Both the position numbers and the translations under genes were made by a program. From an uncultured Planctomycetia bacterium (GTDB lineage: Bacteria > Omnitrophota > Gorgyraeia > Gorgyraeales > Gorgyraeaceae): 64,000 bases of DNA. Under the pieces are notes generated by a model. The model saw only the letters and a program-made list of their open reading frames with translations, searched no databases and had not been told where the DNA came from. The stretch lies in NCBI GenBank assembly GCA_964415355.1, contig CAYPYS010000003.1:4156-68155 (forward strand), read 5' to 3'. This document shows, piece by piece, positions 28,384 through 51,240 of the stretch (positions are counted from its first letter, which is position 1; each line of letters opens with the position of its first letter).

Positions 28384-29156
28384 CACATGCTCCTTACGTA
28401 TTTTACGGCGTTCTTGAAGATCGCGAGGCCGTCGCCGAATCTCTGTAATCCCTCGCGCGTCCATCGAGGATGTTGCGTGCCCACCACATGTCTTTCCGGA
28501 TGAGGCATCATACCCAAGACCCTGCCTGTCGGGTCACATATGCCGGCGATACTCTCGATAGAGCCGTTAGGATTAGAAGGATAACCGGCTATTTTACCTT
28601 TTTCGTCGACATACTGAAACACGATTTGTTTGTTTTTCTTTAAAGAACGCAATACGTCTTTGTCTTTAGGAATAAACTTGCCTTCTCCATGTGCAACAGG
28701 CAGATAAATATTTTTTTTGATCCCTTTTGTCCAAACGCATTTTGCTGTCCTCAAATATGTCCATCGGTCTTCGAACTTACCTGAGTCATTGAAACTTAAA
28801 GAAGCATCCAAGTCATTATATCTCAAACCAGGCAAAATACCGGCTTTTACCAGCACCTGAAAACCATTACATATCCCTATTATGAGTTTTTTCGCCTCTA
28901 TGAAATGCCTGAGCTCTTCTTTGAGCGAGTATTTTATTTCGTTCGCAAGGATTTTTCCCGAAGCAATGTCATCTCCGTATGTAAAACCTCCCGGGATCGC
29001 TAAAATCCTGTAATCCTCCAGGTGTTTTTCGCGCCTGGCAAGCTCATTTATATGCACCAGTTCACACAGAGCACCACACATACTGAATGCAAACGCAGTC
29101 TCTACGTCGCAATTTGTCCCCGCTGTCCTTAAAACTATAACTTTCGGATTTTTCAT
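28383..29156 (-). CDS. purQ: Phosphoribosylformylglycinamidine synthase, glutaminase subunit
   Basis: Class I GATase: GICNGFQ (Cys nucleophile), H..E near the C-terminus. Confidence 0.85.
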   Translation of the reverse strand: MKNPKVIVLRTAGTNCDVETAFAFSMCGALCELVHINELARREKHLEDYRILAIPGGFTYGDDIASGKILANEIKYSLKEELRHFIEAKKLIIGICNGFQVLVKAGILPGLRYNDLDASLSFNDSGKFEDRWTYLRTAKCVWTKGIKKNIYLPVAHGEGKFIPKDKDVLRSLKKNKQIVFQYVDEKGKIAGYPSNPNGSIESIAGICDPTGRVLGMMPHPERHVVGTQHPRWTREGLQRFGDGLAIFKNAVKYVRSM

Positions 29157-29165
29157 ATATCGCCT

Positions 29166-29200
29166 AAGTTTACATTTTAACGTTGTTGAAATGTAAAGTT
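29166..29200. repeat. 35-bp palindromic intergenic repeat, copy 12 (form B variant)
   Basis: aagtttacattttaacgttgttgaaatgtaaagtt. Confidence 0.9.
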
Positions 29201-32105
29201 ACCAGCGTAACGGTTTCTGCCACGCTTCTTTTAATCTGTCCACATTCGCGTCTACGACCTTTTTGCCGTCTATACCATAGACCTTAAGATCCTTTTTATC
29301 TGAAACGCAACCCACGAGGCCCATAGGCACACCTTTCATGATAGATTCAAACTTCTTTTTGTCCTTCTTTTTTACTTCAACGATGAATCTTGTATTTGAT
29401 TCCGAGAATAAAATAACATCGCTCGGGCCTTTAGTCTGAATTGGCACTTCTCCTAAAAACACTTCTGCTCCAAGCCCGCCTGCAAATGCCATCTCAGCCA
29501 GGCTCACCCCAATACCGCCCTCAGAACAGTCGTGGCATGCCCTCGCTATACCGGCGCCTGTTGCTCTGCTGAGCGAATTAAATACCTTTAGGCCATATTT
29601 TGTATCGACCTTTGGGACGCTGTTTCCTATAACTCCCTTTATCATATTGTAATGTGAACCGCCTAATTCATCCCATGTCATGCCGACCACATATATTAAA
29701 TTCCCGCTCTCCTTAAAATCCATTGAAACCGCTTTTGTCACATCGTCCATAACGCACATCGCTGAAATCAGAAGCGTGGGAGGGATGGAAATGGATTTTC
29801 CGTGCACTGAATATTCATTGTTAAGACTGTCCTTTCCCGAAATAAAAGGCGTGCCATAACCCCTGGCAATATCAAGGCACCCGAAACTCGCCCTTACCAG
29901 ATCTCCGAGCCTGTCAGGCTTATCAGTATTGCCCCAGCAAAAGTTGTCTAGAAGCGCTGTTCTCTTCAAGTTCCCGCCCACTGATATGACCTGGCGTAAC
30001 GCTTCATCAATGCAGGAAGCAGCCATCCAATACGGGTCAATAAGACCGTAGCGCGGATTTATTCCATTTGAGACAATAATGCCTTTTTTAGAATTAAACT
30101 TTGGACGTATTATTGCAGCGTCGCCCGGACCATCATTCTTTATCCCGACAAGCGGTTTTAAAACACTCTGACCCTGCACCTCGTGGTCGTATTGCCTTAT
30201 AACCCATTCCTTACTTGAGACATTCCAGGAAGATAGGATCTTCAATAAATCTCCCGTAAGATTTTTGGGGGGGATTTTTTTTGATTCTCTGTGCTTCGGC
30301 ATTTTCCATACGGCCTTGCGCTCAAACCTGGGTATACCACCGTGCAGAAATCTCATATCCAGGTCACACACAAGGTTCCCTTTATACCTCAATCGCAATC
30401 TTTTGTCTTTAGTAAAACGACCTATTGCAACCGCCTCGACATCTTCTTTTCTGAAAACCTCTAATAACTCATCCAGATGTTTCCCGGGAACAGATAATAC
30501 CATTCTCTCCTGCGCCTCGGATATCCATATCTCTGTATAACTTAATCCATGATATTTTAAAGGTGCCTTTTCTAAATCGACTTCTGCTCCCAGGTCTTCT
30601 CCCATCTCGCCCACAGCGCTCGAAAATCCTCCTGCCCCGCAATCAGTAATAGCATTGTATAAATCTCTATCGCGCGCCTTTAAAAGCGTGTCGGTAACCT
30701 TTTTCTCTGTGATGGGATTCCCTATCTGCACTGCGCCGCCCGAAAGGTCCTCGGATTCATGCGTAAGTTCGCCGGAGGAAAAAGTAGCGCCGTGGATGCC
30801 GTCTCTCCCGGTGCGGCCCCCGACAGCTACTATAAAATCTCCTGTCTTTGCGGACTTGAACGATTTATCTTTAGGCATAATACCTACGGTGCCGCAATAC
30901 ACCAAAGGATTCCCTGTGTAGCGCTCGTCGAAAAGCACTGCGCCGTTGGCGGTCGGGATACCCATGCGATTACCATAATCCCTAACGCCGCTGACAACGC
31001 CTTTCATGATCCTTTTTGGATGCAACATGCCTTTTGGGACACGATTTTGAGGCGTGTCAGGAAGCCCAAAACAAAAAATATCAGTATTTATTATCGGTTT
31101 CGCAGCCATGCCCACGCCCAATATGTCGCGTATCACGCCTCCTATACCGGTGCCCGCTCCTCCATAAGGCTCAAGGGCAGAAGGATGATTATGAGTTTCC
31201 ACCTTGAAACATATATTGTCATCGTCGTCAAATCTGATAATCCCGGCATTGTCTTTAAAAACCGAAACGCACCATGGTTTATCCAGGTCTTTTGTAACCT
31301 TTATCACTGTATTCTTTAATAAATTATTTATCTTTCTGTTCCCCAATGCCCTGACGCCTGAGGCACGGCTCTCGAGGTTTTCTTTGTAATCTATAACGCC
31401 TTTGAACGTTTTATGCGCGCAATGCTCTGACCACGTCTGCGCAATAGTCTCTAATTCGCAATCAGTCGGGTTCCTCTTTATCCTTCTGAAATATTTCCTT
31501 ATCTCCTTCATCTCTTTAAGATTTAAAAAGAGCTGTCCGTCTTTACTGATCTTCATGAGCTTCTTATCGCTCGCTCCTAAGATATCAACTATTATTAATT
31601 TGAATTTATAATCTGCCACGTGCCCAGCACCCTGCGTACTGTGTCCCGTGACAACATGCTGTATTACTTTATTATAGAGAAGCTTTTCGCATATAGCATT
31701 AAACTGGGATTCTGAAATCCTGCCCTGCAGAAAATATTTTCTTTCGGTCTTTACGGAATCTACTCCGCTGACACCCAGATCCCTTATCGCCTTTTTTGTG
31801 CTCTCCTCGACAGGGTCCATCACGCCAGGATTATAGGCTATCTCCACTACGCGTGTCCGTGAATCGCGAGTCGTGAGTCGCGAATCGTTATAGATTTCAT
31901 ATTGCTGAGTTATAGGGTCTACCAACAATTCCTCGGCGATCTTCAATATATTATTTCTCGATACACTCCCGGAAATAATAAAGACCTGGGCAGTTGCAAC
32001 TTTCTTGATTGCAACTATACCCAGGTCTTTTATATCTTTTTTGATCCCGCTTCCCAGAGGATCAAAAATACCTTTTTTGTTCCTTATCTCAACCTTCCAC
32101 TCCAC
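29199..32105 (-). CDS. purL: Phosphoribosylformylglycinamidine synthase, PurS-PurL fusion
   Basis: ~80-aa PurS-like N-terminus (MEWKVEIRNKKGIFDPLG...) followed by PurL AIRS-like repeats. Confidence 0.85.
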   Translation of the reverse strand: MEWKVEIRNKKGIFDPLGSGIKKDIKDLGIVAIKKVATAQVFIISGSVSRNNILKIAEELLVDPITQQYEIYNDSRLTTRDSRTRVVEIAYNPGVMDPVEESTKKAIRDLGVSGVDSVKTERKYFLQGRISESQFNAICEKLLYNKVIQHVVTGHSTQGAGHVADYKFKLIIVDILGASDKKLMKISKDGQLFLNLKEMKEIRKYFRRIKRNPTDCELETIAQTWSEHCAHKTFKGVIDYKENLESRASGVRALGNRKINNLLKNTVIKVTKDLDKPWCVSVFKDNAGIIRFDDDDNICFKVETHNHPSALEPYGGAGTGIGGVIRDILGVGMAAKPIINTDIFCFGLPDTPQNRVPKGMLHPKRIMKGVVSGVRDYGNRMGIPTANGAVLFDERYTGNPLVYCGTVGIMPKDKSFKSAKTGDFIVAVGGRTGRDGIHGATFSSGELTHESEDLSGGAVQIGNPITEKKVTDTLLKARDRDLYNAITDCGAGGFSSAVGEMGEDLGAEVDLEKAPLKYHGLSYTEIWISEAQERMVLSVPGKHLDELLEVFRKEDVEAVAIGRFTKDKRLRLRYKGNLVCDLDMRFLHGGIPRFERKAVWKMPKHRESKKIPPKNLTGDLLKILSSWNVSSKEWVIRQYDHEVQGQSVLKPLVGIKNDGPGDAAIIRPKFNSKKGIIVSNGINPRYGLIDPYWMAASCIDEALRQVISVGGNLKRTALLDNFCWGNTDKPDRLGDLVRASFGCLDIARGYGTPFISGKDSLNNEYSVHGKSISIPPTLLISAMCVMDDVTKAVSMDFKESGNLIYVVGMTWDELGGSHYNMIKGVIGNSVPKVDTKYGLKVFNSLSRATGAGIARACHDCSEGGIGVSLAEMAFAGGLGAEVFLGEVPIQTKGPSDVILFSESNTRFIVEVKKKDKKKFESIMKGVPMGLVGCVSDKKDLKVYGIDGKKVVDANVDRLKEAWQKPLRW

Positions 32106-32122
32106 GCTACTCCAGTCCCTTA

Positions 32123-32827
32123 TTAAGCTTTTATTCTCTTGAGAACTTCCTGGTATGCCTCTTCTATCTTTCCTAAATCACGCCTGAAACGGTCCTTGTC
32201 CAGCTTTTCATTGGTCTTCTTATCCCAGAGCCTGCACGTGTCCGGCGATATTTCGTCTCCCAAAAGTACCTTGCCCTGATGCCTTCCGAACTCCAGTTTA
32301 AAATCAACGAGTTTTAGATCGACCTTATCGAAAAAATCTTTTAATAGGTCATTTATCTTAAACGAATAATCTTTTATCTCCTGCATCTCTTTTTTTGTAG
32401 CAAGCCCGAGCATCTCTATGTGGTCATCGTTTATCAATGGATCATGGAGCGCGTCCTCCTTGTAATGATATTCCAGGAGAGGCGCCTTTAAAACTATGCC
32501 TTCTTCTATGCCGAGAAGCTTGGAAAGACCGCCCGCGGAGATATTTCTCATAGTGACCTCCACCAGCACTATTTTAAGCCTCTTTACAAGCATCTCTCTT
32601 TCGTTCAGCTTCTTCACAAAGTGCGTTGGTATACCTTTTGACTCAAGAAGCTGAAATATAGCCGAAGAAATCTCATTATTCATGACTCCCTTTTGCTGTA
32701 TAGTGCCCCTCTTTGTGGCGTCAAAAGCCGTAGCGTCGTCCTTGAATTCCTGTATGACTAAATTAGGGTCATCTGTCTCATACAGTTTTTTTGCCTTGCC
32801 CTCGTAAATCTTTTTACCTTTCTTCAT
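32123..32827 (-). CDS. purC: Phosphoribosylaminoimidazole-succinocarboxamide synthase
   Basis: SAICAR synthetase fold (YEGKAKKLY...). True start MKKGKKIYEG with AAGGAG 6 nt upstream; the MLKCKVRRRR extension comes from the repeat. Confidence 0.9.
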   Translation of the reverse strand: MKKGKKIYEGKAKKLYETDDPNLVIQEFKDDATAFDATKRGTIQQKGVMNNEISSAIFQLLESKGIPTHFVKKLNEREMLVKRLKIVLVEVTMRNISAGGLSKLLGIEEGIVLKAPLLEYHYKEDALHDPLINDDHIEMLGLATKKEMQEIKDYSFKINDLLKDFFDKVDLKLVDFKLEFGRHQGKVLLGDEISPDTCRLWDKKTNEKLDKDRFRRDLGKIEEAYQEVLKRIKA

Positions 32828-32839
32828 TCTTCTCCTTCT

Positions 32840-32874
32840 AACTTTACATTTCAACAACGTTAAAATGTAAAGTT
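32840..32874. repeat. 35-bp palindromic intergenic repeat, copy 13 (form A, 1 substitution)
   Basis: ...gttaaaatgtaaagtt. Confidence 0.95.
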
Positions 32875-32879
32875 ACTTT

Positions 32880-34172
32880 TTATATACCGACTTTTTTGAA
32901 GATCCTGTCTACGTGTTTTGTATAATAAGAGAGATCAAAAAATTTCTCAAGCTCTCTGGGTTTGACCACTTTCATGAAATCCTTGTCTTTCCACAGCGCC
33001 TCTTTAAAATTTATATTTCTAGCCCAGACCTGCATGGCGCATCTCTGGATAATGTCATACGCCCTTCGTCTTTCTACGCCTCTTTTTTCCAGCTCTACAA
33101 GTATCCTTGCTGAAAATATAAGGCCTCTCGTCTTTGCCAGGTTATTCCTCATGTTCCCGGGATAGACATGAAGCTTTTTAATGATAAAGATCATGTCATT
33201 CAGCATATAATCCAAAAGTATAGTGCTGTCAGGTATGATAATCCTTTCTGCTGACGAATGGCTTATATCCCGCTCGTGCCAAAGAGCAACGTTTTCCAGA
33301 GAAACCATTGCATTCGCGCGCAAAACCCTGGCAAGACCCGTAATCCTCTCGCACATAACCGGATTTCGCTTATGCGGCATGGCGCTCGAGCCTTTCTGAC
33401 CCTTAGAAAAAGGTTCTTCGGTCTCTCTTACCTCTGTCTTCTGCAAGTTTCTGATTTCCACTGCTATTTTTTCGAGCGTGGCTCCGACAAGGGCAATCTG
33501 TGAAAGATAATCCGCGTGGCGGTCTCGCTGCAAGACCTGCGTGGATATATTGGCTGACCTCAGGCCCAACTTCTTACATACATAGTTTTCGACATAAGGC
33601 GCCACATTGGAATAAGTCCCGACCGGACCTGAAATCTTACCGACACTGATTATATACTTTGCCTGTTCGAGACGATCAATGCATCTATTTATCTCGTCAA
33701 AATAAAGGCTCATCTTTAGCCCAAATGTTGTGGGTTCAGCGTGCACGCCATGACTCCTGCCGACCATTATTGTGTTTTTATATTTCTTTGCCTTCTTGCG
33801 CAATTCCTGTTTTAGTTTATTCAGGTTTACAATAAGCATATCAGCTGCTTCTTTCATTACCACTGACAAGGCAGTATCCAATACATCGCTTGAAGTAAGA
33901 CCCTGATGCACAAACCTGGAAGCTGGTCCTACGTGTTCTGCTATATTGTGTAGAAAGGCGATTACATCGTGGCGGGTTTTTTGCTCTATTTTCTCTATAC
34001 GCTTTACGCTAAATCTTGCTTTTGACTTTATCTTCTTGAGCTCTTTCCTGGGCACCTTGCCAAGATTGGCCATTGCTTCGCAGGCAAGGATCTCTATATC
34101 CAGCATCTTCTGAAACTTATTCTGCTCGTCCCAGATAGCTGACATCTTTGGAAGTGAATATCTAGGTATCAT
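32880..34172 (-). CDS. purB: Adenylosuccinate lyase
   Basis: Fumarate lyase superfamily signature GSSAMPHKRNP. Confidence 0.9.
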   Translation of the reverse strand: MIPRYSLPKMSAIWDEQNKFQKMLDIEILACEAMANLGKVPRKELKKIKSKARFSVKRIEKIEQKTRHDVIAFLHNIAEHVGPASRFVHQGLTSSDVLDTALSVVMKEAADMLIVNLNKLKQELRKKAKKYKNTIMVGRSHGVHAEPTTFGLKMSLYFDEINRCIDRLEQAKYIISVGKISGPVGTYSNVAPYVENYVCKKLGLRSANISTQVLQRDRHADYLSQIALVGATLEKIAVEIRNLQKTEVRETEEPFSKGQKGSSAMPHKRNPVMCERITGLARVLRANAMVSLENVALWHERDISHSSAERIIIPDSTILLDYMLNDMIFIIKKLHVYPGNMRNNLAKTRGLIFSARILVELEKRGVERRRAYDIIQRCAMQVWARNINFKEALWKDKDFMKVVKPRELEKFFDLSYYTKHVDRIFKKVGI

Positions 34173-36699: not shown

Positions 36700-38142
36700 C
36701 TATAGCTTCCCGCGGGTCGCATAATATTCCGGAATAAGCACTTTATCTAAAAGTCTGGGATTCCTTGCGGCTATATCAGAGATCATGCCCATCATGAGTT
36801 TGGTCTTGTAACGAAATAACTCGCAATAATAAGGATCCGGCTGCCCCAGATTCTTGCTTGAGAAATAATTTAGATTATAGCAAGAACCGCAACCTCTGCA
36901 TATGCGCTTCGCCCAGCATTTATTGCAGGCATCGCTTGAAGAAATCTTGTTATCAAAAAATTTTCTAACCTTATCCTCATTTATTCCTTTTCCGACCGTC
37001 CCTATCCTGAATTTTGGCAGGCCTACAAATGCGGTGCAGGGATATATGCTGCCGTCCATATCTACTGCCATCAGAGTAAACCCCGCCGAACAGGTGCCGA
37101 CGATCGACTGAATATGATACAGCCGGCTCAGCTGTTTGAAGAAGCGATTAAAATACGTATTGGCATACGTCAATCTTCCGCCAAGGATCTCTTTGGTGTA
37201 AAAAAGGGCCAGATCATCATATAAAGATTTAAGGCGGGATAATCCCCTGGGCCCTGAAAAGAAAAATTGGTTATTCGGCTCTAATCCATATCCGGCCTTC
37301 TCGCTCTCGCAGACCTCTATGCGATCAAACTCAAGATCACGTAAAAACTTAAATGTCTTCACTATTTCGTCAGAATAAGGTGTAAAGGTAGCTCTCCCTA
37401 CTATGCGTCTTCTATGTTTTTTACTAAGCGATTTTATATTATTTACCACTATATCATATGAACCCGCGCCATCAGGGAAGGGCCGCTGTCTATCCTGGAT
37501 CTTGCGCGGCCCGTCGAGACTTACGGCGACATCCACGCCATTAGATATTAAGTATTCCCCTCTTTCCTTATCCAGCAATACGCCATTGGTAGCAAGCAGA
37601 AAACGGAATTTAATTCCCTTCTTATCTTGTATCTTCCGGCAATATCCGATAACATTTTTTATAAGTTCGAAATTCAAAAGAGGTTCCCCTCCATAAAAAT
37701 CTACAACCAGATCCTTTACCCCCCTCGATTCTCTGACCAATAGATCTATTGCCTTAAATGCTACCTTTTCTCCCATCTTTTTATTATCTCTGGTTAAATT
37801 ACCGTAGCTCCCGGCTTCGTTCCAACAATAACGACAACGCAGATTACAGCTATTTACGATATTTAACGTAAGGTCTGTTATCCTTCTTTTTATATACGAA
37901 TCCGCTGGCTTTGGCTGGCAGAAAATAACCTTGTCCCTCTTTAATCTGGACAGATTATCAATGGTCGCCTTGGCGGGTTTATGCCCATACTTTCGACAGA
38001 TCTTCTCTTCGGCTTCTTTTGCGGTGCAGTGCTGCATCAGGCTTATAGCCTCTGAAGCCATGTCATCTGCTTCAAAGAAATTAGCGCTTTCGACATCGAC
38101 AACAAAGTTTTTATCGCGTATCTTAAATTGATATACTCTCAT
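36700..38142 (-). CDS. Radical SAM enzyme with C-terminal SPASM domain (peptide/cofactor-modifying maturase type)
   Basis: CNLRCRYC (CX3CX2C) plus a C-terminal Cys cluster CTAFVG...CNKCWAKRICRGCGSC. Confidence 0.75.
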   Translation of the reverse strand: MRVYQFKIRDKNFVVDVESANFFEADDMASEAISLMQHCTAKEAEEKICRKYGHKPAKATIDNLSRLKRDKVIFCQPKPADSYIKRRITDLTLNIVNSCNLRCRYCWNEAGSYGNLTRDNKKMGEKVAFKAIDLLVRESRGVKDLVVDFYGGEPLLNFELIKNVIGYCRKIQDKKGIKFRFLLATNGVLLDKERGEYLISNGVDVAVSLDGPRKIQDRQRPFPDGAGSYDIVVNNIKSLSKKHRRRIVGRATFTPYSDEIVKTFKFLRDLEFDRIEVCESEKAGYGLEPNNQFFFSGPRGLSRLKSLYDDLALFYTKEILGGRLTYANTYFNRFFKQLSRLYHIQSIVGTCSAGFTLMAVDMDGSIYPCTAFVGLPKFRIGTVGKGINEDKVRKFFDNKISSSDACNKCWAKRICRGCGSCYNLNYFSSKNLGQPDPYYCELFRYKTKLMMGMISDIAARNPRLLDKVLIPEYYATRGKL

Positions 38143-38189: not shown

Positions 38190-38205
38190 AAAGGGGAGCC
38201 CCTTT
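38190..38205. terminator. GC-stem hairpin (aaagggg-ag-ccccttt) between the small peptide ORF and the SPASM radical SAM gene
   Basis: Read directly. This is the usual position of an attenuator between a precursor gene and its maturase. Confidence 0.4.
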
Positions 38206-38242
38206 ATGAAAACCTAAAGCAAGCTCCCCTGGAAGGAAATGC

Positions 38243-38323
38243 CTACCACAACACCCTACCGCAACGACAGAATGCCGAAGGATAGCGCCGCTTATTCTTG
38301 CGACGATTAAGCAAGTAAATCAT
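38243..38323 (-). CDS. 26-aa basic, Cys-containing peptide MIYLLNRRKNKRRYPSAFCRCGRVLW (candidate RiPP precursor/leaderless core)
   Basis: ORF found by hand; AAGAAGGGGGG lies 6 nt upstream of the ATG. Same strand as, and immediately upstream of, the SPASM radical SAM gene. Not in the ORF track because of its size. Confidence 0.35.
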   Translation of the reverse strand: MIYLLNRRKNKRRYPSAFCRCGRVLW

Positions 38324-38465
38324 GTGCACCCCCTTCTTCTTTGCTTCTATAGTTTATTATGATATACCCTCTCCTGGCACAAGGCAAGGAAAAAATAAGT
38401 TTACACCTTGTGACACTGTTCGAAAACATCTGGTTATTCTATCCTACCCGATAACATTGAAGATA

Positions 38466-39173
38466 TTACAAAAACACTGCCTTGAGAAACTCCATATAAA
38501 TCCTGTTGTTCAACTTTGACGCGCCGGTCTTTCTCTCTCCGAATACATAATGGATATTCTTTACAGCTATATTCCCGGGCGAGGCCTTTAAAAAATCAAA
38601 GAGTATCTTATAGCCCTTTGGCCTGAAATCGACCAAGCCATTCTTATCAAAAACCCACTCTTTCCAAAAACTTGTGTCTGCGCCAAAAAAACCTGTCAGC
38701 ACATCATAGCTGAAATATTTCTTACCTCTTATCAATAAAGAAAATCTGCCTAAAAAATTTCCAAGATAGGATATGCTTTTTCTTAAGACAGGCCAGCGGC
38801 CTTCTACTATTTTACGAGAAGCCGCAACCAACCTCGACCCCTCTGCCAGGCCGTCCATAATATCCCTTACCCTTTCCCAAGGATGCTGGTTATCCGCATC
38901 CATCACGATAAAATATTTGGTCTTGACCAATCTGGTCGCGTCTAAAATGCTCGCTGTCAGCCCATGGACCCTTTCGTTCTTCCTGTCTAAAAAAAATATC
39001 CTCCTGTCTTGAAAAGATAAAACCAGATCCCTTGTATTATCAGCCGACCCGTCATCCGTTACTATAATAAATATATCGCGGTATAATTCGAATAATTTAT
39101 TTATCAACACACCCACGTTGCCTGCTTCATTTAATGTCGGGAGTATGATAGTGTATTTATTCTCTGGTATCAT
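38466..39173 (-). CDS. GT2-family glycosyltransferase (polyprenyl-phosphate sugar transferase, DPM1/ArnC-like)
   Basis: IILPTLNEAGNV...IIVTDDGSADNT...VMDADNQHP, i.e. the DxD and GT-A motifs. Confidence 0.75.
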   Translation of the reverse strand: MIPENKYTIILPTLNEAGNVGVLINKLFELYRDIFIIVTDDGSADNTRDLVLSFQDRRIFFLDRKNERVHGLTASILDATRLVKTKYFIVMDADNQHPWERVRDIMDGLAEGSRLVAASRKIVEGRWPVLRKSISYLGNFLGRFSLLIRGKKYFSYDVLTGFFGADTSFWKEWVFDKNGLVDFRPKGYKILFDFLKASPGNIAVKNIHYVFGERKTGASKLNNRIYMEFLKAVFL

Positions 39174-40522
39174 TTTAGGACTAGGGGAAGTCTCGATATT
39201 ATCCTGCCTTTAAGGCAGTGGGGATTGCCGGCATAAAGATCTCCTGTTGTTGAAAAAACCTCTGCCCTGCAACTACCCCTGCATCTCTTTCTGAAAAAAC
39301 ACGCCTTGCACGGAAAGTCAAATCTATCCACGTCCATAAGGCTGAGCATCTGCGGAGAATTCCAGATCTCCCCTATATTTTCTTCCAATATGTTTCCAAG
39401 CGGATGATGTAACAGCTCGCAGAAAAATATAGACCCTTCATGGTCTATATTAGTCTCTATATGTCCGCCGTAACAGGAAGTGATTATCGTGACCATGGGC
39501 CTTCCGATCCCATCCCTATTAAGATAGCCCAGGCACTTAAGAAATCCGAATTCCAATTTATTGAGCGCCAGTGTATCGCTATGTTCGCGGCCGCGGCCGG
39601 CCCTGATAAATGTATTGACAATAATCCTTGATACATTGAAATCTTTAAAAAATCTCCTGAGCCTGAATATATCAGAAAAGTTTCTGTGTGTCGCTGTAAA
39701 GTTTATATAGGTATCTATGCCTTCTTTGGAGAGTTTTTCTAAAATTGCGATGGCCTTTTTAAAATGCCCTTCCCCTCTTATGAGGTCATTAGACCTGGAA
39801 GATACTCCGTCCATGCCCATAGACAACGTTATATCTTTTCTCTTGCCGAGTTCTTTTATTTCCTTATCTTTCAGAAGCATGCCATTTGTATTTATCCTGA
39901 CCTTCATGTCCCTGGATAAAATGCAGTCTATTATATCAAATATATGAGGATTTAAAAATGATTCTCCGCCCGTTAAAATAACCTCGAAGACCCCTGCCGC
40001 TTTTATCCTGTCCACTATCTTCCTGATCCTGTGTAAATCTATCCCGCGATCGTCGCCTTTTTCAGGGAGATTATAGCAATGAGCGCATTTCAGATTGCAC
40101 TCATGCGTAATCGTAAAAAATACCCTGAGAGGATATCTGGGCCTGGCGAATCTTGAATAATCCATGTATCCCAGATCAAAAGACTTTATGTCTGGTTTTA
40201 TAAATTTAGGAAGATTATATCGAGGGGCGATATTGTCGCCAAAACCGACCTTGTCGCCATTGAATCGAGAGGTAATAATCTCTTTTTTAAGCAGGTCGTT
40301 CAAAAACTTCTTTACAATAAACCTGGTATGATTATTATTTAAATCAGCGCATTTAAAAGATCCGACAAGCTGTGACAGGTCTACGCCATTGCAATAATAG
40401 AATATAATGGACGCTGTTTCGTTTAGCGTCCAGTATCTATCATTGCGATAGATGATTATCTTGGAACCGTCTTCCCATCGCCATCTTATACTATCATTTT
40501 TATAAAATAATGGGCTCTTCAT
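39170..40522 (-). CDS. Radical SAM/SPASM maturase with N-terminal PqqD-like RiPP-recognition element
   Basis: N-terminal WTLNETASIIFYYCNGVDLSQLV resembles PqqD/RRE. CNLKCAHC core; SPASM Cys cluster FFCELLHHPLGN...FPCKACFFRKRCRGSCRAE. Confidence 0.7.
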   Translation of the reverse strand: MKSPLFYKNDSIRWRWEDGSKIIIYRNDRYWTLNETASIIFYYCNGVDLSQLVGSFKCADLNNNHTRFIVKKFLNDLLKKEIITSRFNGDKVGFGDNIAPRYNLPKFIKPDIKSFDLGYMDYSRFARPRYPLRVFFTITHECNLKCAHCYNLPEKGDDRGIDLHRIRKIVDRIKAAGVFEVILTGGESFLNPHIFDIIDCILSRDMKVRINTNGMLLKDKEIKELGKRKDITLSMGMDGVSSRSNDLIRGEGHFKKAIAILEKLSKEGIDTYINFTATHRNFSDIFRLRRFFKDFNVSRIIVNTFIRAGRGREHSDTLALNKLEFGFLKCLGYLNRDGIGRPMVTIITSCYGGHIETNIDHEGSIFFCELLHHPLGNILEENIGEIWNSPQMLSLMDVDRFDFPCKACFFRKRCRGSCRAEVFSTTGDLYAGNPHCLKGRIISRLPLVLK

Positions 40523-40523
40523 A

Positions 40524-41582
40524 TCATATATTAATATTTTTGTAAGATATATCCAGCTTTGCAGGCAGGATATATCTCGCGCGAAAATCAGGATTATTCA
40601 TAAGGCACCCTTTGTATCCCGAATTAAAAATAGGGTGTGCCCACATAGACTCTAATATTTTATTCAGGGGTCTAGTGCGCATATCCCCGAAACTTACAGG
40701 CACAAAAGGACAAGGCTGCACCTCTCCATAACAGGAGACATAAAAAAAATCTTTTTTTAAGGCTGCGCAAAACCTCTCATCATTTTTACAAAAAGCTTCG
40801 CTGGATTCCAGATACACGAAACCAGGATCAGCGAGCTTCCTGACCTCATTCTCTTCTTCACTGGTCAGTCTCTCTTCTTCTCTGTCCACCCATCTGCCGG
40901 CCAATGTCGCAAATATAACCCGCACAGAGTTGACCTTTAATCTCCTGCCGATATCTATGATCTTCTTCAGCCGTCCACTCTTTATCTTATCTCTATGGGC
41001 GTTCATAAATATGCTGCAGGAAAGGCCTTCCTTAACGCAGGCCTTTATGCCATCAATGGCATTTTCAAAACATCCCTCTGCCTTTGATACTAAATCATGG
41101 CTCTCTCTATCAGGGCCTTCGATCCTCACAAAAATATGATTCAGCCCGGACTTTTTTAATTTCAAAACTACATCCCTGGAAAGATCTACTCCATTAGTTT
41201 CCATTTCAGTAAATAAACCTCTACTGACAGCATAGTCGATCAGCTCATATATATCTTTTCTGAGAAGAGGTTCCCCTCCTATAAAAGAAACAGCAGTGCA
41301 CATGGACGGGTATTCCGCGATCTCGTCCAGTATCTTTTTGACCTCAAAAGAGGAAAGTTCTTTTTCAGGATGCCTGTCATAACTCCCGCACCAGCAATAG
41401 TCACACTTACAATGGCACTCATATGTGAGATTGACCATTGCCTTTAAAACGCCTCCCCTTATGCTCTTGAGAGGATGAACGCAAAGCGTCCTGATCGAAC
41501 GCGCCAGCTGGCAGGACAATCGATTGCTGAATTTTTCCCTGAATTTCAATCTATAATTCTTTAACCTGGCTATGAAATCCAC
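40524..41582 (-). CDS. Radical SAM protein (~350 aa) with SPASM-like C-terminal Cys motifs
   Basis: YECHCKCDYCWC; C-terminal CKNDERFC...VSCYGEVQPCPFVP...GC. Paralog of 45858–46925. Confidence 0.7.
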   Translation of the reverse strand: MDFIARLKNYRLKFREKFSNRLSCQLARSIRTLCVHPLKSIRGGVLKAMVNLTYECHCKCDYCWCGSYDRHPEKELSSFEVKKILDEIAEYPSMCTAVSFIGGEPLLRKDIYELIDYAVSRGLFTEMETNGVDLSRDVVLKLKKSGLNHIFVRIEGPDRESHDLVSKAEGCFENAIDGIKACVKEGLSCSIFMNAHRDKIKSGRLKKIIDIGRRLKVNSVRVIFATLAGRWVDREEERLTSEEENEVRKLADPGFVYLESSEAFCKNDERFCAALKKDFFYVSCYGEVQPCPFVPVSFGDMRTRPLNKILESMWAHPIFNSGYKGCLMNNPDFRARYILPAKLDISYKNINI

Positions 41583-41599
41583 ACAAATCTCCTGCGCAG

Positions 41600-43009
41600 C
41601 TAAAAAATAGTCTTAAAAAAATTAACCACCCTGCCTGTTAATTCATTGATCTCGGAATATCCAAAAATTTCTCTAAGGAGATACGCCGGTCTTAAATAAA
41701 AATCACGGTAACATCTTTTGCGATATTTTATCAACGTATCCATGTCCAGTCCGTATGTTGTATGCGCCAACTTTTTGGGAGAAGAATATTTGTGATAGTG
41801 CCGGTATTCCACGTCCTTTTTGATCTCTCCTCTGGCCAATGCCGTTTTATATAATTTTGATCCGGGGAATGGCTGTGTAATAAAAAACACAGCTCTGTCC
41901 AGAGGTAATTTTTTTGCAAATTTTAAAGTATCTCTAATGCTCTTATCATTATCACCCGGCAGGCCTATCATGAAAAACGCCACTGTCTTTATGCCTGCCT
42001 TCCTGGTCTCGTGAATAGTTTTCTCAATGCATTCTAACTTTATGCCTTTATTTATATTGTCCAGGACCCTCTGATTGCCGGATTCGACGCCATACCCTAT
42101 CTGCCAGCAACCTGATGCCTTCATGGCCTTGAGCGTCTCCGGCGTTACCCGATCGACCCTGCCCATACATGACCAGTCAATCTTTAAGTTCCTGGATATA
42201 AGCTTACGGCATAATTCCATAACCCTTTCCGGACTAAAAGTAAACAGATCATCTACGATACTTACTTCACTGACACCGTACTTATCAACCAGTACCTGTA
42301 TTTCATCCAATATATGTCCTGCACTGCGCGTCCTGAATTGATTGCCGAAAACTGCCTGGTCGCAGAAAACACATTTATACGGGCAGCCGCGGCTAGTGAT
42401 AATGATTGCGTTCGGCAGAGACTTGTAATAGCAATATCTGTATTTATCAACCGGTGGCAACAGGTGCCGTGCAGGAAGAGGTATTGTATCCAGGTCCTCT
42501 ATGTACGGCCTCTTCGTAGTACGGACAGGTTTTTTGCCATTATTGAAGATTATGCCTTTTATATCAGGGATCTTGTCTTTTCTGCGCGCGGAGATGGCAT
42601 CTGCAAGTTCTACTATAGTGCGCTCTCCTTCTCCGAGAACACCGTAATCAAAGCACCCTGTTTCCATTGTCTCTTCAGGAAGTGCGCTAACATGGGGCCC
42701 TCCTATGACTACGGTATAGTCGCCAAGTGATTTTATCTTTTCCGCCAATAATCTTGTTATGCAGAAATCAGGCGTGGAAGAGCCAAGGCCAACAATGCCT
42801 GGATTAAATCCTGAAACATGCTCCAGGATACTGTCTATAGAGAACCTCTCTGCCTTGGCATCTATTATCTTCACATCATAACCTGCGTTTTCTAATGCCG
42901 CGGCTATATAGGCCAGGCCAAGGGGCTGCGACCTGTCATAGACATGCCCAAAGCTCCTGACGCCGGATTCCAAATCACTCGGAGGATGGATCAAAAGTAT
43001 CTTCAGCAA
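41600..43009 (-). CDS. Cobalamin-binding (class B) radical SAM enzyme, paralog A
   Basis: N-terminal B12-binding Rossmann domain (LGLAYIAAALENAGYDVKIIDA...VVIGGPHVSALPEE) plus ITSRGCPYKCVFCDQ. Confidence 0.8.
   Translation of the reverse strand: MLKILLIHPPSDLESGVRSFGHVYDRSQPLGLAYIAAALENAGYDVKIIDAKAERFSIDSILEHVSGFNPGIVGLGSSTPDFCITRLLAEKIKSLGDYTVVIGGPHVSALPEETMETGCFDYGVLGEGERTIVELADAISARRKDKIPDIKGIIFNNGKKPVRTTKRPYIEDLDTIPLPARHLLPPVDKYRYCYYKSLPNAIIITSRGCPYKCVFCDQAVFGNQFRTRSAGHILDEIQVLVDKYGVSEVSIVDDLFTFSPERVMELCRKLISRNLKIDWSCMGRVDRVTPETLKAMKASGCWQIGYGVESGNQRVLDNINKGIKLECIEKTIHETRKAGIKTVAFFMIGLPGDNDKSIRDTLKFAKKLPLDRAVFFITQPFPGSKLYKTALARGEIKKDVEYRHYHKYSSPKKLAHTTYGLDMDTLIKYRKRCYRDFYLRPAYLLREIFGYSEINELTGRVVNFFKTIF
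42467..42928. repeat. 462-nt segment 100% identical to 43873–44334 (B12-domain-coding part of adjacent paralogs)
   Basis: Verified line by line; the copies are offset by exactly 1406 nt. Confidence 0.95.
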
Positions 43010-44421
43010 AACATTGCCCTCAAAATATTCGACATCCTTAGAAACAGGACTTTAAATCCGCGATATCTGATAATCTGTTTCAAAAGATACAGTGGCCGCA
43101 TATAAAATTCGCGGTAAAATTTATTTCTGTATCTTACCAGTGTCTCTGCGGTAAGATCCTTTGCCACATAAGCAAAGCGGTTATGGGCAGCCATGTTGTG
43201 ATAATAACGGTATTCTATGTCTTTAAATATCTCTTTTCTGGCAACGGCATTTTTGTATAGCTCTGATCCGGGAAAAGGCTGAGTGATGCGAAAACCGAGC
43301 TTATCCAGGCCGAGCCTTTTTACAAAACTCAAACTGTCCCTGATATTTTGTTCATTGTCTCCCGGCAATCCTATCATGAGAAAGGCCGCTGCCTCAATGC
43401 CTGCCGTTCTGGTCTGGAAAATAGTCTCTTTGATGCCAGACAGGTTGATATTTTTATTTATCCTGTCCAATGTATCCTGACTACCGGACTCGATCCCGTA
43501 TATGATCTGCCAGCATCCTGCTGACTTCATGGCCTTGAGCGTTTCCGGGGTTACGTGATCTGTCCTGCTCAAGCATGACCAAACCACGTTCATCTTTCTG
43601 GATATTAGCTCGCGGCAAAACTTCAGGATCCTTTCGCGGTCTACGGTAAAAAGATCATCTACGATATCTATGCCTTTTACACCATGTCTTTTTACCAGCA
43701 TCTCTATCTCATCTACTATATTAGGAACGCTCCGCCTTCTGAGATGGTTGCCAAAGACTGCCTGGTCGCAGAAAACACATTTATACGGGCAGCCGCGTGT
43801 GGTTATTATTGTAGCTGTAGGCAAATATCTATACCAGCTGTAACTATATCTCCTTATATCAGGCAGTAATCTCCGTGCAGGAAGAGGTATTGTATCCAGG
43901 TCCTCTATGTACGGCCTCTTCGTAGTACGGACAGGTTTTTTGCCATTATTGAAGATTATGCCTTTTATATCAGGGATCTTGTCTTTTCTGCGCGCGGAGA
44001 TGGCATCTGCAAGTTCTACTATAGTGCGCTCTCCTTCTCCGAGAACACCGTAATCAAAGCACCCTGTTTCCATTGTCTCTTCAGGAAGTGCGCTAACATG
44101 GGGCCCTCCTATGACTACGGTATAGTCGCCAAGTGATTTTATCTTTTCCGCCAATAATCTTGTTATGCAGAAATCAGGCGTGGAAGAGCCAAGGCCAACA
44201 ATGCCTGGATTAAATCCTGAAACATGCTCCAGGATACTGTCTATAGAGAACCTCTCTGCCTTGGCATCTATTATCTTCACATCATAACCTGCGTTTTCTA
44301 ATGCCGCGGCTATATAGGCCAGGCCAAGGGGCTGATATATATCAATGACGGGATTTAGCCTCCCTCCCATGCCTAAATAATCGACCGGCGGATAAACTAA
44401 AAGTATTTTATTTTTTTTCAT
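43003..44421 (-). CDS. Cobalamin-binding (class B) radical SAM enzyme, paralog B
   Basis: N-terminal ~190 aa are identical to paralog A; TTRGCPYKCVFCDQ; the C-terminal half diverges. Confidence 0.8.
   Translation of the reverse strand: MKKNKILLVYPPVDYLGMGGRLNPVIDIYQPLGLAYIAAALENAGYDVKIIDAKAERFSIDSILEHVSGFNPGIVGLGSSTPDFCITRLLAEKIKSLGDYTVVIGGPHVSALPEETMETGCFDYGVLGEGERTIVELADAISARRKDKIPDIKGIIFNNGKKPVRTTKRPYIEDLDTIPLPARRLLPDIRRYSYSWYRYLPTATIITTRGCPYKCVFCDQAVFGNHLRRRSVPNIVDEIEMLVKRHGVKGIDIVDDLFTVDRERILKFCRELISRKMNVVWSCLSRTDHVTPETLKAMKSAGCWQIIYGIESGSQDTLDRINKNINLSGIKETIFQTRTAGIEAAAFLMIGLPGDNEQNIRDSLSFVKRLGLDKLGFRITQPFPGSELYKNAVARKEIFKDIEYRYYHNMAAHNRFAYVAKDLTAETLVRYRNKFYREFYMRPLYLLKQIIRYRGFKVLFLRMSNILRAMFC
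43873..44334. repeat. Second copy of the 462-nt perfect direct repeat
   Basis: Identical to 42467–42928. Confidence 0.95.
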
Positions 44422-44422
44422 T

Positions 44423-45850
44423 TTAAAAAATTGATTTCATAAAAGCCCTGATTCGCCTCGGAAAAGCCCGAAATTCTCTATAACTAAAAATCTGGTTGAT
44501 AACAAACGACGGCCGCATATAAAATTCGCGGTAAAACCTATTCCTGCATTTCACCAGGGTCTCTGCGGTAAGGCCGCGCGGGACATAGGGCAACTCTTTA
44601 TGAAAATTATCATTGTCGTAATAATGATATCCTACGTCTTTCCTGATCTCTCCTCTAGCAAGGGCTGTCTTGTATAACTCTGATCCTGGAAAAGGCTGCG
44701 TGATGCAAAACGCTACTCTATCCAGTGAAAGCCTCTTGGAAAAATCAATGGTCTCGCGCATGCTTTTTTCATCATCACCTGGCAGCCCCACTAGAAAAAA
44801 GCCCTGCGTCCTTATCTTCACCCTTTTAGTCCAGCTAACAGCCTTCTCTGCAACCTCCAACGTGATATCTTTCTTGATCGAGTCCAGGATCTTTTGATTG
44901 CCTGACTCAATCCCATAATTTATGTGCCAGCAACCAGCTTTTTTCATGATCCTAAGCATCTCCGGCGTAACACAATTAACCCTTCCCATGCAGAGCCATG
45001 CTATCTTTAATCTCCTAGACATCAACTTACTACAAAATTCCATGACCCTTTCGCGGTTTACAGTAAACAAATCATCCACTATCTCTATCTCGCGAACGCC
45101 GTAATCTTTCACTAGCATCTCTACTTCGTCCAATATATTCCCTATGCTTCTCATCCTTACCTTGCTGCCGAATACAGAGCGATCGCAAAACGTACATTGA
45201 TAAGGACAACCACGACTGGTAATAATAGGGGCTTTTGGTAAATATTTATAAAACTTATACTCGTATCTGCTTATATCCGACAATAATCTCCACGCCGGAA
45301 ATGGTATGGTATCCAAGTCTTTTATATATGGACGGCGCGGTGTCTTCACAATTCGAGAACCTTCTCTGAAAACCACACCCATGATATTACATGTTCCTGC
45401 TTCTTTACCATCGCATATTGCATCGACGAGCTCTAATATTGTATCCTCTCCCTCATCAATAAGGCCGTAATCAAAGCATCCTGTTTCCATTGTCTCTTCA
45501 GGAAGTGCGCTTACATGGGGCCCTCCTATGACTACGGTATAGTCGCCAAGTGATTTTATGGCCTTTGCCAGGGACTTCGTTATAAAGAAATCAGGGGTAG
45601 AGGAGCTTATGCCTATAATGCGGGGATTAAATCCTGAGACCTTTTTTAAAATATCATCTATAGAAAGCCTTTCCAACTTGGCATCTATTATCTCAACCTC
45701 GTATCCGGCTCTATCCAGCACTGCGGCTATATAAGCAAGGCCCAGAGGAGGATTCATGCAATAGAAATGCCCGGTCTTCCCGTTTTCTAAAAACGTGATA
45801 GGCGGATAGATTAAAAGGATTTTTTCTTTTTTATGATTTTCTAAAGGCAT
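44423..45850 (-). CDS. Cobalamin-binding (class B) radical SAM enzyme, paralog C
   Basis: Same architecture; ITSRGCPYQCTFCDR. Shares an ~80-nt patch with paralogs A/B at 45481–45560 (1 mismatch). Confidence 0.8.
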   Translation of the reverse strand: MPLENHKKEKILLIYPPITFLENGKTGHFYCMNPPLGLAYIAAVLDRAGYEVEIIDAKLERLSIDDILKKVSGFNPRIIGISSSTPDFFITKSLAKAIKSLGDYTVVIGGPHVSALPEETMETGCFDYGLIDEGEDTILELVDAICDGKEAGTCNIMGVVFREGSRIVKTPRRPYIKDLDTIPFPAWRLLSDISRYEYKFYKYLPKAPIITSRGCPYQCTFCDRSVFGSKVRMRSIGNILDEVEMLVKDYGVREIEIVDDLFTVNRERVMEFCSKLMSRRLKIAWLCMGRVNCVTPEMLRIMKKAGCWHINYGIESGNQKILDSIKKDITLEVAEKAVSWTKRVKIRTQGFFLVGLPGDDEKSMRETIDFSKRLSLDRVAFCITQPFPGSELYKTALARGEIRKDVGYHYYDNDNFHKELPYVPRGLTAETLVKCRNRFYREFYMRPSFVINQIFSYREFRAFPRRIRAFMKSIF

Positions 45851-45857
45851 ATTAAAA

Positions 45858-46925
45858 TCAACCGCGTTCTATATCTTCAGCAAATAAAATGTCTGGCCCG
45901 GCATGCCTGACATATTTATCATGAAATCTTCTATTATTCATCAGACATCCCCTATAATTCTCATTACCAAAGATGGATTTCTTCCACATGTTGTCTAATA
46001 TTTCATTCAGCCCCTTTTCTCTGATATTTCCGAAATTAATGGGCACAAAAGGACACGGTTGTACCTCTCCATAACATGAAACATAAAACATTTTCTTATC
46101 CTTAGACGGGCATATCCTGTCCATTTCCCTGGCGCATACATAGCTGGATTCGAGATATACAAAATCCGGGGTCAAGAATTCCTTTACTGCGTTCTCTTCG
46201 GTCTCTGTTAAGACCTCATGTTCATTTTTTATCCATCTGCCGGCGCATGTAGGATAAAGAATTCTTACAGAACTTACCCTTAATTCTTTTCCTAATTTTA
46301 TTATTTCTTTGATCTGGCCATTATATATTTTTTCCTTGGTAGCTATAGTTGAAATACTGCACGATAATCCTTCTTCTACGCAATGTCCTATCCCATACAC
46401 GGCATGGCTGAAACATCCTTTAAAATCCGATATCCTGTCATGAGACTCAGGTTCGGTATTTTCTATTCTCAGGAAGACATGGTGCAGGCCGGCCTTTTTA
46501 AGTCTTTTTACATTATCTAAAGAAAGAAGGATCCCGTTTGTCTCTATCTCTGCGAACAATCCTCTTCTATTTGTGTATTTGACCAGCTCAAAGATGTCGT
46601 TCCTCATCAAGGCCTCTCCGCCGAAAAAAGTAACCACAATGCCCGAAAAAGGTAACCGGCCAATATCATCGAGCAATCTCTTGACTTCCGAAGTGCTGAT
46701 TTCTTTTTCTTTATTTTTTATATATAATCCTGAACAACAATATTCGCAGTTACACTGACATTCGTAAGTCAACCCTATTATTACCTTTAAAAAGCCATTT
46801 CTTATACCTTGATAGGGTGATCTTATCAAAAGACCGCCCCATCTCAATAACTGGGCAGAATATGAGTTGCTGAATTTTTCTCTGAATCTAAGCCTGTGAT
46901 TTTTTAATTTGCTTATTATATTCAT
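45858..46925 (-). CDS. Radical SAM protein (~355 aa) with SPASM-like C-terminus, paralog of 40524–41582
   Basis: YECQCNCEYCCSG; C-terminal CAREMDRICPS...VSCYGEVQPCPFVP...GC. Confidence 0.7.
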   Translation of the reverse strand: MNIISKLKNHRLRFREKFSNSYSAQLLRWGGLLIRSPYQGIRNGFLKVIIGLTYECQCNCEYCCSGLYIKNKEKEISTSEVKRLLDDIGRLPFSGIVVTFFGGEALMRNDIFELVKYTNRRGLFAEIETNGILLSLDNVKRLKKAGLHHVFLRIENTEPESHDRISDFKGCFSHAVYGIGHCVEEGLSCSISTIATKEKIYNGQIKEIIKLGKELRVSSVRILYPTCAGRWIKNEHEVLTETEENAVKEFLTPDFVYLESSYVCAREMDRICPSKDKKMFYVSCYGEVQPCPFVPINFGNIREKGLNEILDNMWKKSIFGNENYRGCLMNNRRFHDKYVRHAGPDILFAEDIERG

Positions 46926-46949
46926 TTTATGAAACAGGTGTCGTATATT

Positions 46950-49854: not shown

Positions 49855-49856
49855 GC

Positions 49857-51209: not shown

Positions 51210-51240
51210 AACTCCTTCTGCGACTCCAGTCCGTAAACTC

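Follow-up and report, generated by a model that had tools for sequence, protein, structure and literature searches.

A 26-codon open reading frame (ORF) lies on the minus strand of a 64,000-nucleotide stretch of DNA from an uncultured bacterium (GenBank assembly GCA_964415355.1, contig CAYPYS010000003.1, positions 4,156 to 68,155; the whole stretch is referred to as the window), immediately before a gene for a radical S-adenosylmethionine (radical SAM) enzyme with a SPASM domain. Comparison with homologous loci indicates that this ORF is a real, protein-coding gene, and its product is very probably the substrate (precursor) of the downstream enzyme. The two genes quite probably form a self-contained precursor-hairpin-maturase module of the radical SAM/SPASM kind known from peptides that are made by the ribosome and then modified post-translationally (RiPPs), with a logic similar to that of SCIFF. 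Judged from the loci compared, Candidatus Omnitrophota conserve the module, and a version of it with a variant peptide is conserved in Elusimicrobia-like and other uncultivated bacteria. An initial annotation, made from the letters of the window alone, had proposed a precursor–attenuator–maturase layout of the sacti- or ranthipeptide type, and this proposal is supported by the conservation of the peptide, by the NCBIfam maturase matches of the enzyme and by its match to CteB. The two genes are as follows.

38243-38323, minus strand: peptide gene (proposed precursor/substrate), conserved as a protein in 30 distinct genes
36700-38142, minus strand: gene for a 480-amino-acid enzyme with a RiPP recognition element (RRE), a radical SAM domain and a SPASM domain (proposed maturase), from Pfam, NCBIfam, the CteB match and an AlphaFold2 (AF2) model

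Conservation of the peptide gene and its enzyme

The ORF starts at the ATG at 38323-38321 with MIYLLNRRKNKRRYPSAFCRCGRVLW and stops at the TAG at 38245-38243 (26 codons, 81 nt); the limits and the two Cys residues given in the initial annotation were read identically. The predicted peptide MIYLLNRRKNKRRYPSAFCRCGRVLW has a mass of 3.3 kDa, a pI of 11.4, eight Lys and Arg residues and no acidic residue, and its two Cys are C19 and C21 (C-x-C). Since 140 ORFs of at least 20 amino acids were counted in the 11 kb around the locus, a 26-codon ORF is expected by chance and is not significant alone; its significance comes from conservation in the sequences compared.

When the 480-amino-acid enzyme was used as a query against one genome per species, nine loci with 54-73% identity were found: seven from Candidatus Omnitrophota and two labelled Planctomycetales/Planctomycetia. 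In all seven of these with available upstream DNA, a 26-codon ORF was present behind GGAGGTG, 69-264 nt before the enzyme gene, with the consensus M-[IVL]-[RK]-[LQ]-L-N-R...Y-R-A-[AR]-F-C-[RG]-C-[GS]-R-V-L-W-stop. More distant enzyme homologues (37-45% identity) had an upstream peptide in seven of seven loci, one of them from an Elusimicrobia assembly and another accompanying the main type in the same genome as a second copy; examples are MFKLLNSCKKSAKRNRIRFCRCARVLW, MHIKKLSKRSGVRKRTRFCRSGRVLW, MKAKKINKDTKSKKKLSRYCRSGRVLW and MKAKKTIKKAKAKKVNKTTKAKKKLSRYCRSGRVLW. The initial annotation had suggested looking for the small ORF beside homologous maturases, and one ending in [F/Y]-C-R-[C/S]-[G/A]-R-V-L-W-stop was found in 14 of the 14 enzyme-anchored loci with upstream DNA (37–68% identity). 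One organism carries two paralogous peptide-enzyme modules (L017 and L028), in which ...FCRCGRVLW accompanies a 64%-identical enzyme and ...FCRCARVLW a 45%-identical enzyme.

The reverse search used a degenerate DNA pattern for Y-x3-FCRCGRVLW-stop on metagenome contigs, without reference to the enzyme. All 18 matches were true peptide genes with a Shine-Dalgarno (SD) sequence, 17 complete and one cut by the contig end. Some of them were on the same contigs as the genome loci, so that the distinct genes number 21 for this 81-nt class and 30 overall. The enzyme gene followed 63-121 nt downstream in 15 of the 17 loci that could be judged (one of the 18 was too short). The peptide and enzyme genes are thus linked in both directions in these data sets. 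The spacing reached its extremes in L009, where the two genes are 264 nt apart, and in L034, where they overlap by 7 nt: there (2999-3007), the GTG start of the enzyme is inside the last codons of the peptide (TTGTGGTAA), leaving no room for an intervening hairpin. In L010, only a remnant of the enzyme gene was found, with about codon 11 fused to about codon 446. The peptide gene of this locus (~5665-5760, plus strand), its SD and its hairpin are intact, whereas the enzyme is reduced to ~30 codons (MQVYQFKMWGK fused to TKLMIAMIAKINEKVPNF) and is followed by a gene for a B12-binding radical SAM protein of ~520 amino acids; the deletion could be a real maturase loss in one population or an assembly artefact.

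The pattern of variation was that of a coding sequence. Among the 21 distinct 81-nt genes, the invariant Leu4 and Leu5 were encoded by six and five codons, respectively, both codons were used for the invariant Asn6 and for Tyr14 and Phe18, and the variable sites at codon positions 1, 2 and 3 numbered 13, 11 and 24. Since the pattern search had forced the C-terminal residues, the substitution count was repeated on the 11 loci found via the enzyme only: pairwise differences in the last nine codons were 188 synonymous versus 57 non-synonymous. Stops were present in the other five frames in 15-28 of the 30 distinct genes, and in the peptide frame in none. Across 342 aligned columns, the window and its closest relative, L022, have a mean column identity of 94%, and within the ORF they differ by two substitutions, both synonymous; the frame disruption that the initial annotation had named as a sign against the gene was not seen in L022, and an overlapping 40-codon ORF (38429-38307) has lost its ATG in the same relative.

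Alignment of 24 distinct peptides revealed that M1, C19, R23, V24, L25 and W26 are invariant, with the stop directly after W26 in all of them, that R20 and G22 are nearly invariant, and that position 18 is Phe or Tyr. A hydrophobic-Asn/Ser-Lys/Arg motif approximately 13 residues before the Cys is also conserved. The initial annotation had regarded 26 amino acids as short for a leader plus a core; the alignment instead has two conserved modules, this N-terminal motif and a C-terminal core. The C-x-C motif that it had pointed out is present in the window with both Cys, but only the first (C19) is invariant family-wide, C21 being confined to Omnitrophota clades. Members of the family have 26-36 amino acids, a net charge of +7.5 to +15.5 and no acidic residues, and their N-terminal parts are Lys/Arg-rich, of low complexity and of variable length.

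The start of the downstream gene at 38142, as initially annotated, was borne out. Pfam detected Radical_SAM and Fer4_12 in its product, and SPASM at a borderline score (19.8 bits against a cutoff of 21.5). The best NCBIfam matches were the SCIFF, nif11-peptide, PapB, QhpD and CcpM maturases, all below their curated cutoffs: the SCIFF maturase (TIGR03974) ranked first with a full-length match of 249.6 bits (cutoff 425), PapB scored 245.8 bits (cutoff 340) and QhpD 223.3 bits (cutoff 453), whereas the anSME and MftC models gave 99.9 (cutoff 349) and 65.9 bits (cutoff 265), respectively. The five top-ranking families are thioether-forming or Cys-rich-peptide maturases. By sequence, the closest solved structure was CteB (5WGG; E 4.6e-59, residues 3-444, 28% identity). 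In the AF2 model, built with 38 homologues (mean predicted local distance difference test score, pLDDT, 90.5), residues 3-69 adopt the beta-beta-beta-alpha-alpha-alpha arrangement of an RRE fold with pLDDT >90; the Pfam PqqD model matched this N-terminus only faintly (E 0.15). Foldseek also placed CteB first (TM 0.78-0.89, ~456 columns, 28% identity), followed by anSME, which is without the N-terminal domain. The CX3CX2C motif (C99/C103/C106) and exactly seven SPASM Cys residues (C351/C369/C406/C409/C415/C421/C440) are invariant in the 38 homologues. Sequence and model thus agree in characterizing the enzyme as a CteB-like peptide maturase, homologous over its full length including the RRE. 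A possible tracking of the second Cys of the peptide by Cys418 of the enzyme was rejected, because L028-type enzymes have Ala418 and yet a CRC peptide.

The enzyme family has a boundary: at 50% clustering, approximately five clusters scored 298-635 bits, and the next ones at most 258 bits at 30-33% identity. The locus of an edge enzyme (36% identity, 298 bits) contained no RVLW peptide, and an outgroup enzyme (33% identity, 251 bits) adjoins a different, Cys-rich precursor of 52 amino acids together with genes for an ABC transporter and a CPBP protease.

Expression signals and RNA structures

The signals around the peptide gene in the window are listed below in the order of transcription.

38359-38387, minus strand: candidate sigma-70-type promoter, TTGCCT - 17 nt - TATCAT (9/12 consensus positions)
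38327-38338, minus strand: extended SD sequence AAGAAGGGGGTG (8/9 of the consensus AAGGAGGTG), ending 3 nt before the ATG
38232-38242, minus strand: anti-SD element GCATTTCCTTC, directly after the stop and complementary to the SD region (G-U pairs allowed)
38192-38230, minus strand: predicted hairpin of 15 bp with one bulge and an 8-nt loop, terminator- or attenuator-like or a 3'-end stabilizer

The strong SD of the initial annotation is present and near-consensus, but its letters are AAGAAGGGGGTG and not AAGAAGGGGGG; homologous loci have AAGGAGGTG or a close variant at the same spot before the peptide gene. The candidate promoter is identical in L022, and promoter-like sites were found 5' of the peptide gene in other loci, with up to 11-12 of 12 positions in L028, L030 and L033. 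In AT-rich DNA, a consensus match alone is weak evidence, and the promoter assignment is accordingly tentative.

The hairpin starts 13 nt after the stop and consists of a 5' arm AGGGGAGCUU-G-CUUUA (38230-38215), a loop GGUUUUCA (38214-38207) and a 3' arm UAAAGGGGCUCCCCU (38206-38192), followed by UUUCUUACGUU (38191-38181). The hairpin initially annotated at 38190–38205 is a real palindrome but represents only the 3' arm of this 15-bp structure (38230–38192). A simple terminator scan of the window did not list the hairpin, perhaps owing to the bulge in its stem. Only the local structure matters, since the complete 341-nt intergenic region folded no better than shuffled sequences (z = -1.39). 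The 75 nt after the stop were stably structured (z <= -2, median -27.3 kcal/mol) in 22 of the 24 distinct Omnitrophota (CRC) clade loci, as opposed to three of seven loci in other clades. As a part of the module layout, the hairpin of the initial annotation is thus kept in the Omnitrophota clade, but not family-wide. The hairpins of the clade have unrelated sequences at the same position (8-16 nt after the stop), and about half of them a clear U-tract.

The SD/anti-SD duplex of the window has a predicted energy of -18.6 kcal/mol, which was equalled by none of 300 control windows of the same DNA. When 30 loci were assessed in this way, at most 2% of the controls were as good in 15 of them; CTTCCTT follows the stop in most Omnitrophota (CRC) clade loci and is absent from the distant clades. 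RNAalifold on 19 mini-transcripts missed the SD/anti-SD helix, owing to variable post-stop spacing and to the resulting lack of register of the element in the alignment, and returned only a weak internal hairpin of -9.4 kcal/mol with unconvincing covariation (term -0.67). The anti-SD claim thus rests on the comparison of the duplex with controls. A search of the whole window with Rfam detected neither a riboswitch nor another known RNA at the locus, its only matches being two tRNAs and a group I intron elsewhere. We read these RNA features as clade-specific expression tuning (attenuation, 3'-end protection and SD masking), and not as the reason for the conservation of the ORF.

The proposed reaction and competing explanations

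The following sequence of events would account for the arrangement. The peptide would be made in excess from its own promoter and near-perfect SD, and the post-stop hairpin would terminate or attenuate most transcripts and protect their 3' end, such that enzyme mRNA is less abundant than peptide mRNA, as the layout and the conserved structure suggest. In the Omnitrophota clade, the anti-SD, the complementarity of which is observed, may pair with the SD and close the mini-mRNA. The RRE of the enzyme would bind the peptide, probably via the hydrophobic-Asn/Ser-Lys/Arg motif, by analogy to CteA-CteB; in CteB, the RRE carries the leader as a strand, and an open iron site on one auxiliary cluster binds the substrate Cys (PMC8326336). 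The C-terminal core R-[F/Y]-C-R-x-G-R-V-L-W may then enter the active site with Cys19 on the open iron site of the auxiliary cluster, and a 5'-deoxyadenosyl radical would take a hydrogen from a nearby residue, yielding a C-S (thioether) crosslink, as the homology to CteB, PapB and QhpD suggests. The acceptor may be Arg23, at the i+4 distance of the PapB ring, Val24, at the i+5 distance reported for the CteB ring in vitro, or the terminal Trp26. By this analogy, a thioether from Cys19 is somewhat favoured as the modification. Neighbours of the related loci included no recurring protease or exporter gene, and we infer from this that the product remains in the cell, probably as the whole crosslinked and highly cationic peptide, as suspected for SCIFF.

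The likeness to SCIFF (CteA/CteB of Clostridium thermocellum; TIGR03973/TIGR03974) includes the two-gene order of a short Cys peptide and an RRE-radical SAM-SPASM enzyme, conservation that is lineage-wide rather than sporadic, and the lack of a dedicated exporter or protease; CteB is the best match in sequence and fold, and CX3CX2C and the seven-Cys SPASM are common to both. On the other hand, the peptides are unrelated: 26-36 amino acids with one invariant Cys (two in Omnitrophota) as opposed to six Cys in ~45 residues. Furthermore, the core is here at the extreme C-terminus, ends in Trp and offers no Thr, Asp, Glu or Asn as an acceptor, the enzyme is only 28% identical to CteB and well under the SCIFF cutoff, and the hosts are Omnitrophota and Elusimicrobia instead of Clostridia. 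No NCBIfam model, that of the SCIFF peptide included, matched any of six distinct peptides at E <= 10 (E <= 0.01 for the window peptide).

PapA/PapB (freyrasin) and QhpC/QhpD are comparable in that their enzymes are among the top NCBIfam matches. PapB and QhpD make thioethers from Cys-S to C-beta or C-gamma, and the i to i+4 spacing of PapB (C-x3-D) would equal Cys19-Arg23 here; however, their acidic acceptors are absent from this core, the matches are below the cutoffs, and QhpC is an enzyme subunit and not a free peptide. MftA and PqqA are also very short precursors (about 23-30 amino acids), with modified residues at or near the C-terminus and a SPASM-type radical SAM enzyme with an RRE. 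They differ from the present system in that the MftC and PqqE models match weakly, the RRE is a separate protein (MftB/PqqD) instead of fused, and MftD-F and PqqB/C/F are not conserved beside the module.

With regard to the features of radical SAM/SPASM RiPP systems, a linked and conserved precursor ORF, CX3CX2C with SPASM, an RRE and a donor Cys (C19) were all found, and a ranthipeptide acceptor of a known type near the donor Cys was not. Several points weigh against the precursor and thioether assignment. The translation and modification of the peptide are predictions from sequence. The conserved core R-[FY]-C-R-[CS]-[GA]-R-V-L-W of the 24 distinct peptides is without Asp, Glu, Asn and Thr; to our knowledge, the acceptor in all characterized ranthipeptides is one of these four, and a thioether would therefore need an acceptor type new for this class. 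The enzyme is far below every curated maturase cutoff, including that of SCIFF, its best match, and the reaction is thus not transferable by equivalog rules. The hairpin and the anti-SD are clade-specific and not family-wide. Lastly, L010 and L018 keep the peptide without an intact adjacent enzyme; in L018, for which only 514 nt are available, a glycosyltransferase gene is next to the peptide gene.

One more specific version of the precursor assignment, possible but doubtful, is that of a polycationic, lineage-wide housekeeping micro-protein with an undescribed crosslink, which would stay inside the cell as the Omnitrophota/Elusimicrobia counterpart of SCIFF. It would carry a thioether joining Cys19 with the C-terminal Trp or with an Arg, Val or Leu, or a modification needing the free ...RVLW end, and would act, for example, on nucleic acids or ribosomes and not as a secreted bacteriocin.

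The best of the competing explanations, although an unlikely one, keeps the peptide as the substrate and replaces the Cys thioether by another modification: a C-C cyclophane between Arg and the terminal Trp (as by WprB, StrB and RrrB), conversion of Cys19 to formylglycine (anSME-type), or an MftC-like C-terminal decarboxylation or crosslinking. The invariance of R23, V24, L25, W26 and the stop position suggests that the free C-terminus or the Trp matters, the core has none of the known ranthipeptide acceptors, and radical SAM enzymes joining Trp to Arg or Lys exist (PMC11851443). For formylglycine, anSME was the second-best structural match, and C-x-x-x-R resembles the sulfatase C-x-P-x-R; for the MftC-like reaction, MftA ends in ...CGVY and the present peptide in ...CGRVLW. 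However, the nearest enzymes by hidden Markov model, sequence and fold are thioether formers (249.6 bits for SCIFF/CteB versus 99.9 for anSME and 65.9 for MftC), and Cys is the sole never-changing residue besides RVLW. anSME also differs by the absence of an RRE, and no sulfatase gene was linked to the enzyme here. Mycofactocin is further disfavored, since the peptide ends in RVLW and no MftB/D/E/F-like partner genes are conserved nearby.

It is improbable that the small ORF acts in cis, as a regulatory leader or as a peptide that arrests the ribosome in the manner of TnaC and SpeFL, with the true substrate elsewhere. A ribosome paused at the ORF end would then sit over the anti-SD and the hairpin's 5' arm, and control read-through into the radical SAM gene. 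The layout is indeed comparable (a short ORF with a conserved C-terminus at its stop, a stable hairpin 8-16 nt on and the regulated gene next), and the SD/anti-SD complementarity suggests translational control. Nevertheless, the core is equally conserved in clades without the anti-SD and with structure in only three of seven loci, and at both the 7-nt overlap (L034) and the 264-nt gap (L009); the peptide of L010 is kept in spite of the deletion of its enzyme. Unlike the genes after TnaC and SpeFL, the downstream gene here encodes a maturase with a peptide-binding RRE, no other conserved candidate substrate was found near the enzyme in related loci, and an invariant Cys beside a thioether-type maturase would be an unexplained coincidence.

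Even less probable is a free-standing basic micro-protein (binding nucleic acids or ribosomes, or acting as a partner or chaperone of the enzyme) that is linked but unmodified. The charge of +7.5 to +15.5 without acidic residues, N-termini resembling ribosomal or histone-like tails and the absence of exporter and protease genes nearby are in line with this, but neither ribosomal nor other solved proteins match the peptide profile, Pfam and NCBIfam have no family for it, and the strict two-way linkage and the family boundary shared with the maturase are the pattern of an enzyme and its substrate. A regulatory or ribosomal-like basic peptide, the fallback of the initial annotation, is thus much less likely than a precursor. 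That there is no gene, but only an ORF occurring by chance over a structured and conserved RNA or a regulatory region, can be practically dismissed: the ORF is short, its 26-amino-acid forms are reported by no gene caller and the region contains stable RNA structure, but Rfam has no match at the locus, RNAalifold yielded only the weak internal hairpin, the downstream hairpins are unrelated in sequence, and the substitution pattern is that of a protein.

Genomic surroundings and implications of the module

A second SPASM enzyme (39170-40522) had been proposed in the initial annotation as an RRE-containing partner; it is not needed, because the adjacent enzyme has its own RRE, and it was rejected as a partner since a homologue was found in no related locus. 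The flanks of the module vary among related loci (purine and glycolysis genes, methyltransferases, lycopene cyclase, phosphorylase and others), with genes for B12-binding radical SAM proteins as frequent neighbours. A conserved one of ~520 amino acids (N-terminus MKKILLVRPPRYLWPFINESDNFLLPLGLPCIA...) is encoded 20-140 nt beyond the maturase gene in many of the loci, though not in all: directly after the enzyme in L002, L006, L011, L013, L021 and L035, and listed also for L010 and L024. A gene for a UbiA-like prenyltransferase follows the maturase in L001 and L024. These neighbours may represent a co-maturase or unrelated lipid chemistry. A B12-binding radical SAM protein or a family-2 glycosyltransferase (GT2) was rejected as an obligatory third partner, since the ~520-amino-acid protein is missing in some loci, and the window contains no orthologue of it, only paralogues with 25-29% identity.

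In the window, a GT2 gene (38466-39173) and then a radical SAM island are upstream of the module, and enolase is downstream. The island (39170-51308, minus strand; further B12-binding radical SAM genes at ~51670-59951) encodes three B12-binding radical SAM proteins (best matches of the HpnJ/BchE/ladderane type, none reaching its cutoff), three SPASM proteins, of which one is faintly PqqD-like at its N-terminus (E 0.0019), a MiaB-like methylthiotransferase, a GNAT protein, two GT2 proteins and a Tes-like (tetraether lipid synthase-like) radical SAM protein that has a zinc ribbon at its N-terminus; this gene content resembles that of lipid or glycan modification more than that of peptide chemistry. 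Over at least 422 nt (42467-42888 and 43873-44294, minus strand), two neighbouring paralogues of the B12-binding radical SAM kind (41600-43009 and 43003-44421) are 100% identical, as against ~70% in the remainder, and a third paralogue (44423-45850) is 69-77% identical over that stretch; either recent gene conversion or a chimeric assembly would explain the identical stretch.

On the other side, the minus strand carries a purine row at 27394-34172 (putative purM, purQ, purL, purC and purB, named by similarity of translations), followed by a split tRNA, enolase and the peptide module. The tRNA, located between the enolase and purB genes, is an initiator tRNA-fMet(CAU) (35016-34735, minus strand) with an anticodon loop split by a group I intron of ~205 nt; the exons, read by eye, are CGCGGGGTGGAGCAGTCTGGTAGCTCGTCGGGCTCA (35016-34981) and TAACCCGAAGG...CCGCTACCA (34775-34735). 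The Rfam model Intron_gpI scored 70.7 bits at 34992-34805, and ARAGORN does not call this tRNA.

The peptide belonged to no family in Pfam and NCBIfam (only chance-level matches to zf-CDGSH, E 0.04-0.09), and its profile had no match in the PDB at E <= 10. Exact look-up of ten peptides in a collection of 15 billion proteins revealed that nine forms of 26-28 amino acids were all absent, the sole one on record being the 36-amino-acid Elusimicrobia form, which is unnamed. A phage origin was rejected, as the motif had no match in viral contigs. Literature searches on the motif and on combinations of Omnitrophota, ranthipeptide and SCIFF yielded no description of the peptide family or the module. 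The peptide-enzyme pair constitutes a new family of an already known kind of system, and the reaction product may be new as well.

Surveys of metagenomes report biosynthetic gene clusters from the uncultivated Omnitrophota (PMC9902471). The probable precursor belonging to one conserved radical SAM cluster of this phylum is now identified; it had escaped annotation because the forms of 26-28 amino acids are not called as genes, and [FY]CR[CS][GA]RVLW-stop provides a simple annotation rule for the gene in other genomes. Since the core is without the known ranthipeptide acceptors, the product is likely to show a new crosslink, and the wide conservation, which resembles that of SCIFF and is not accompanied by export genes, is relevant to the role of housekeeping radical SAM peptides.

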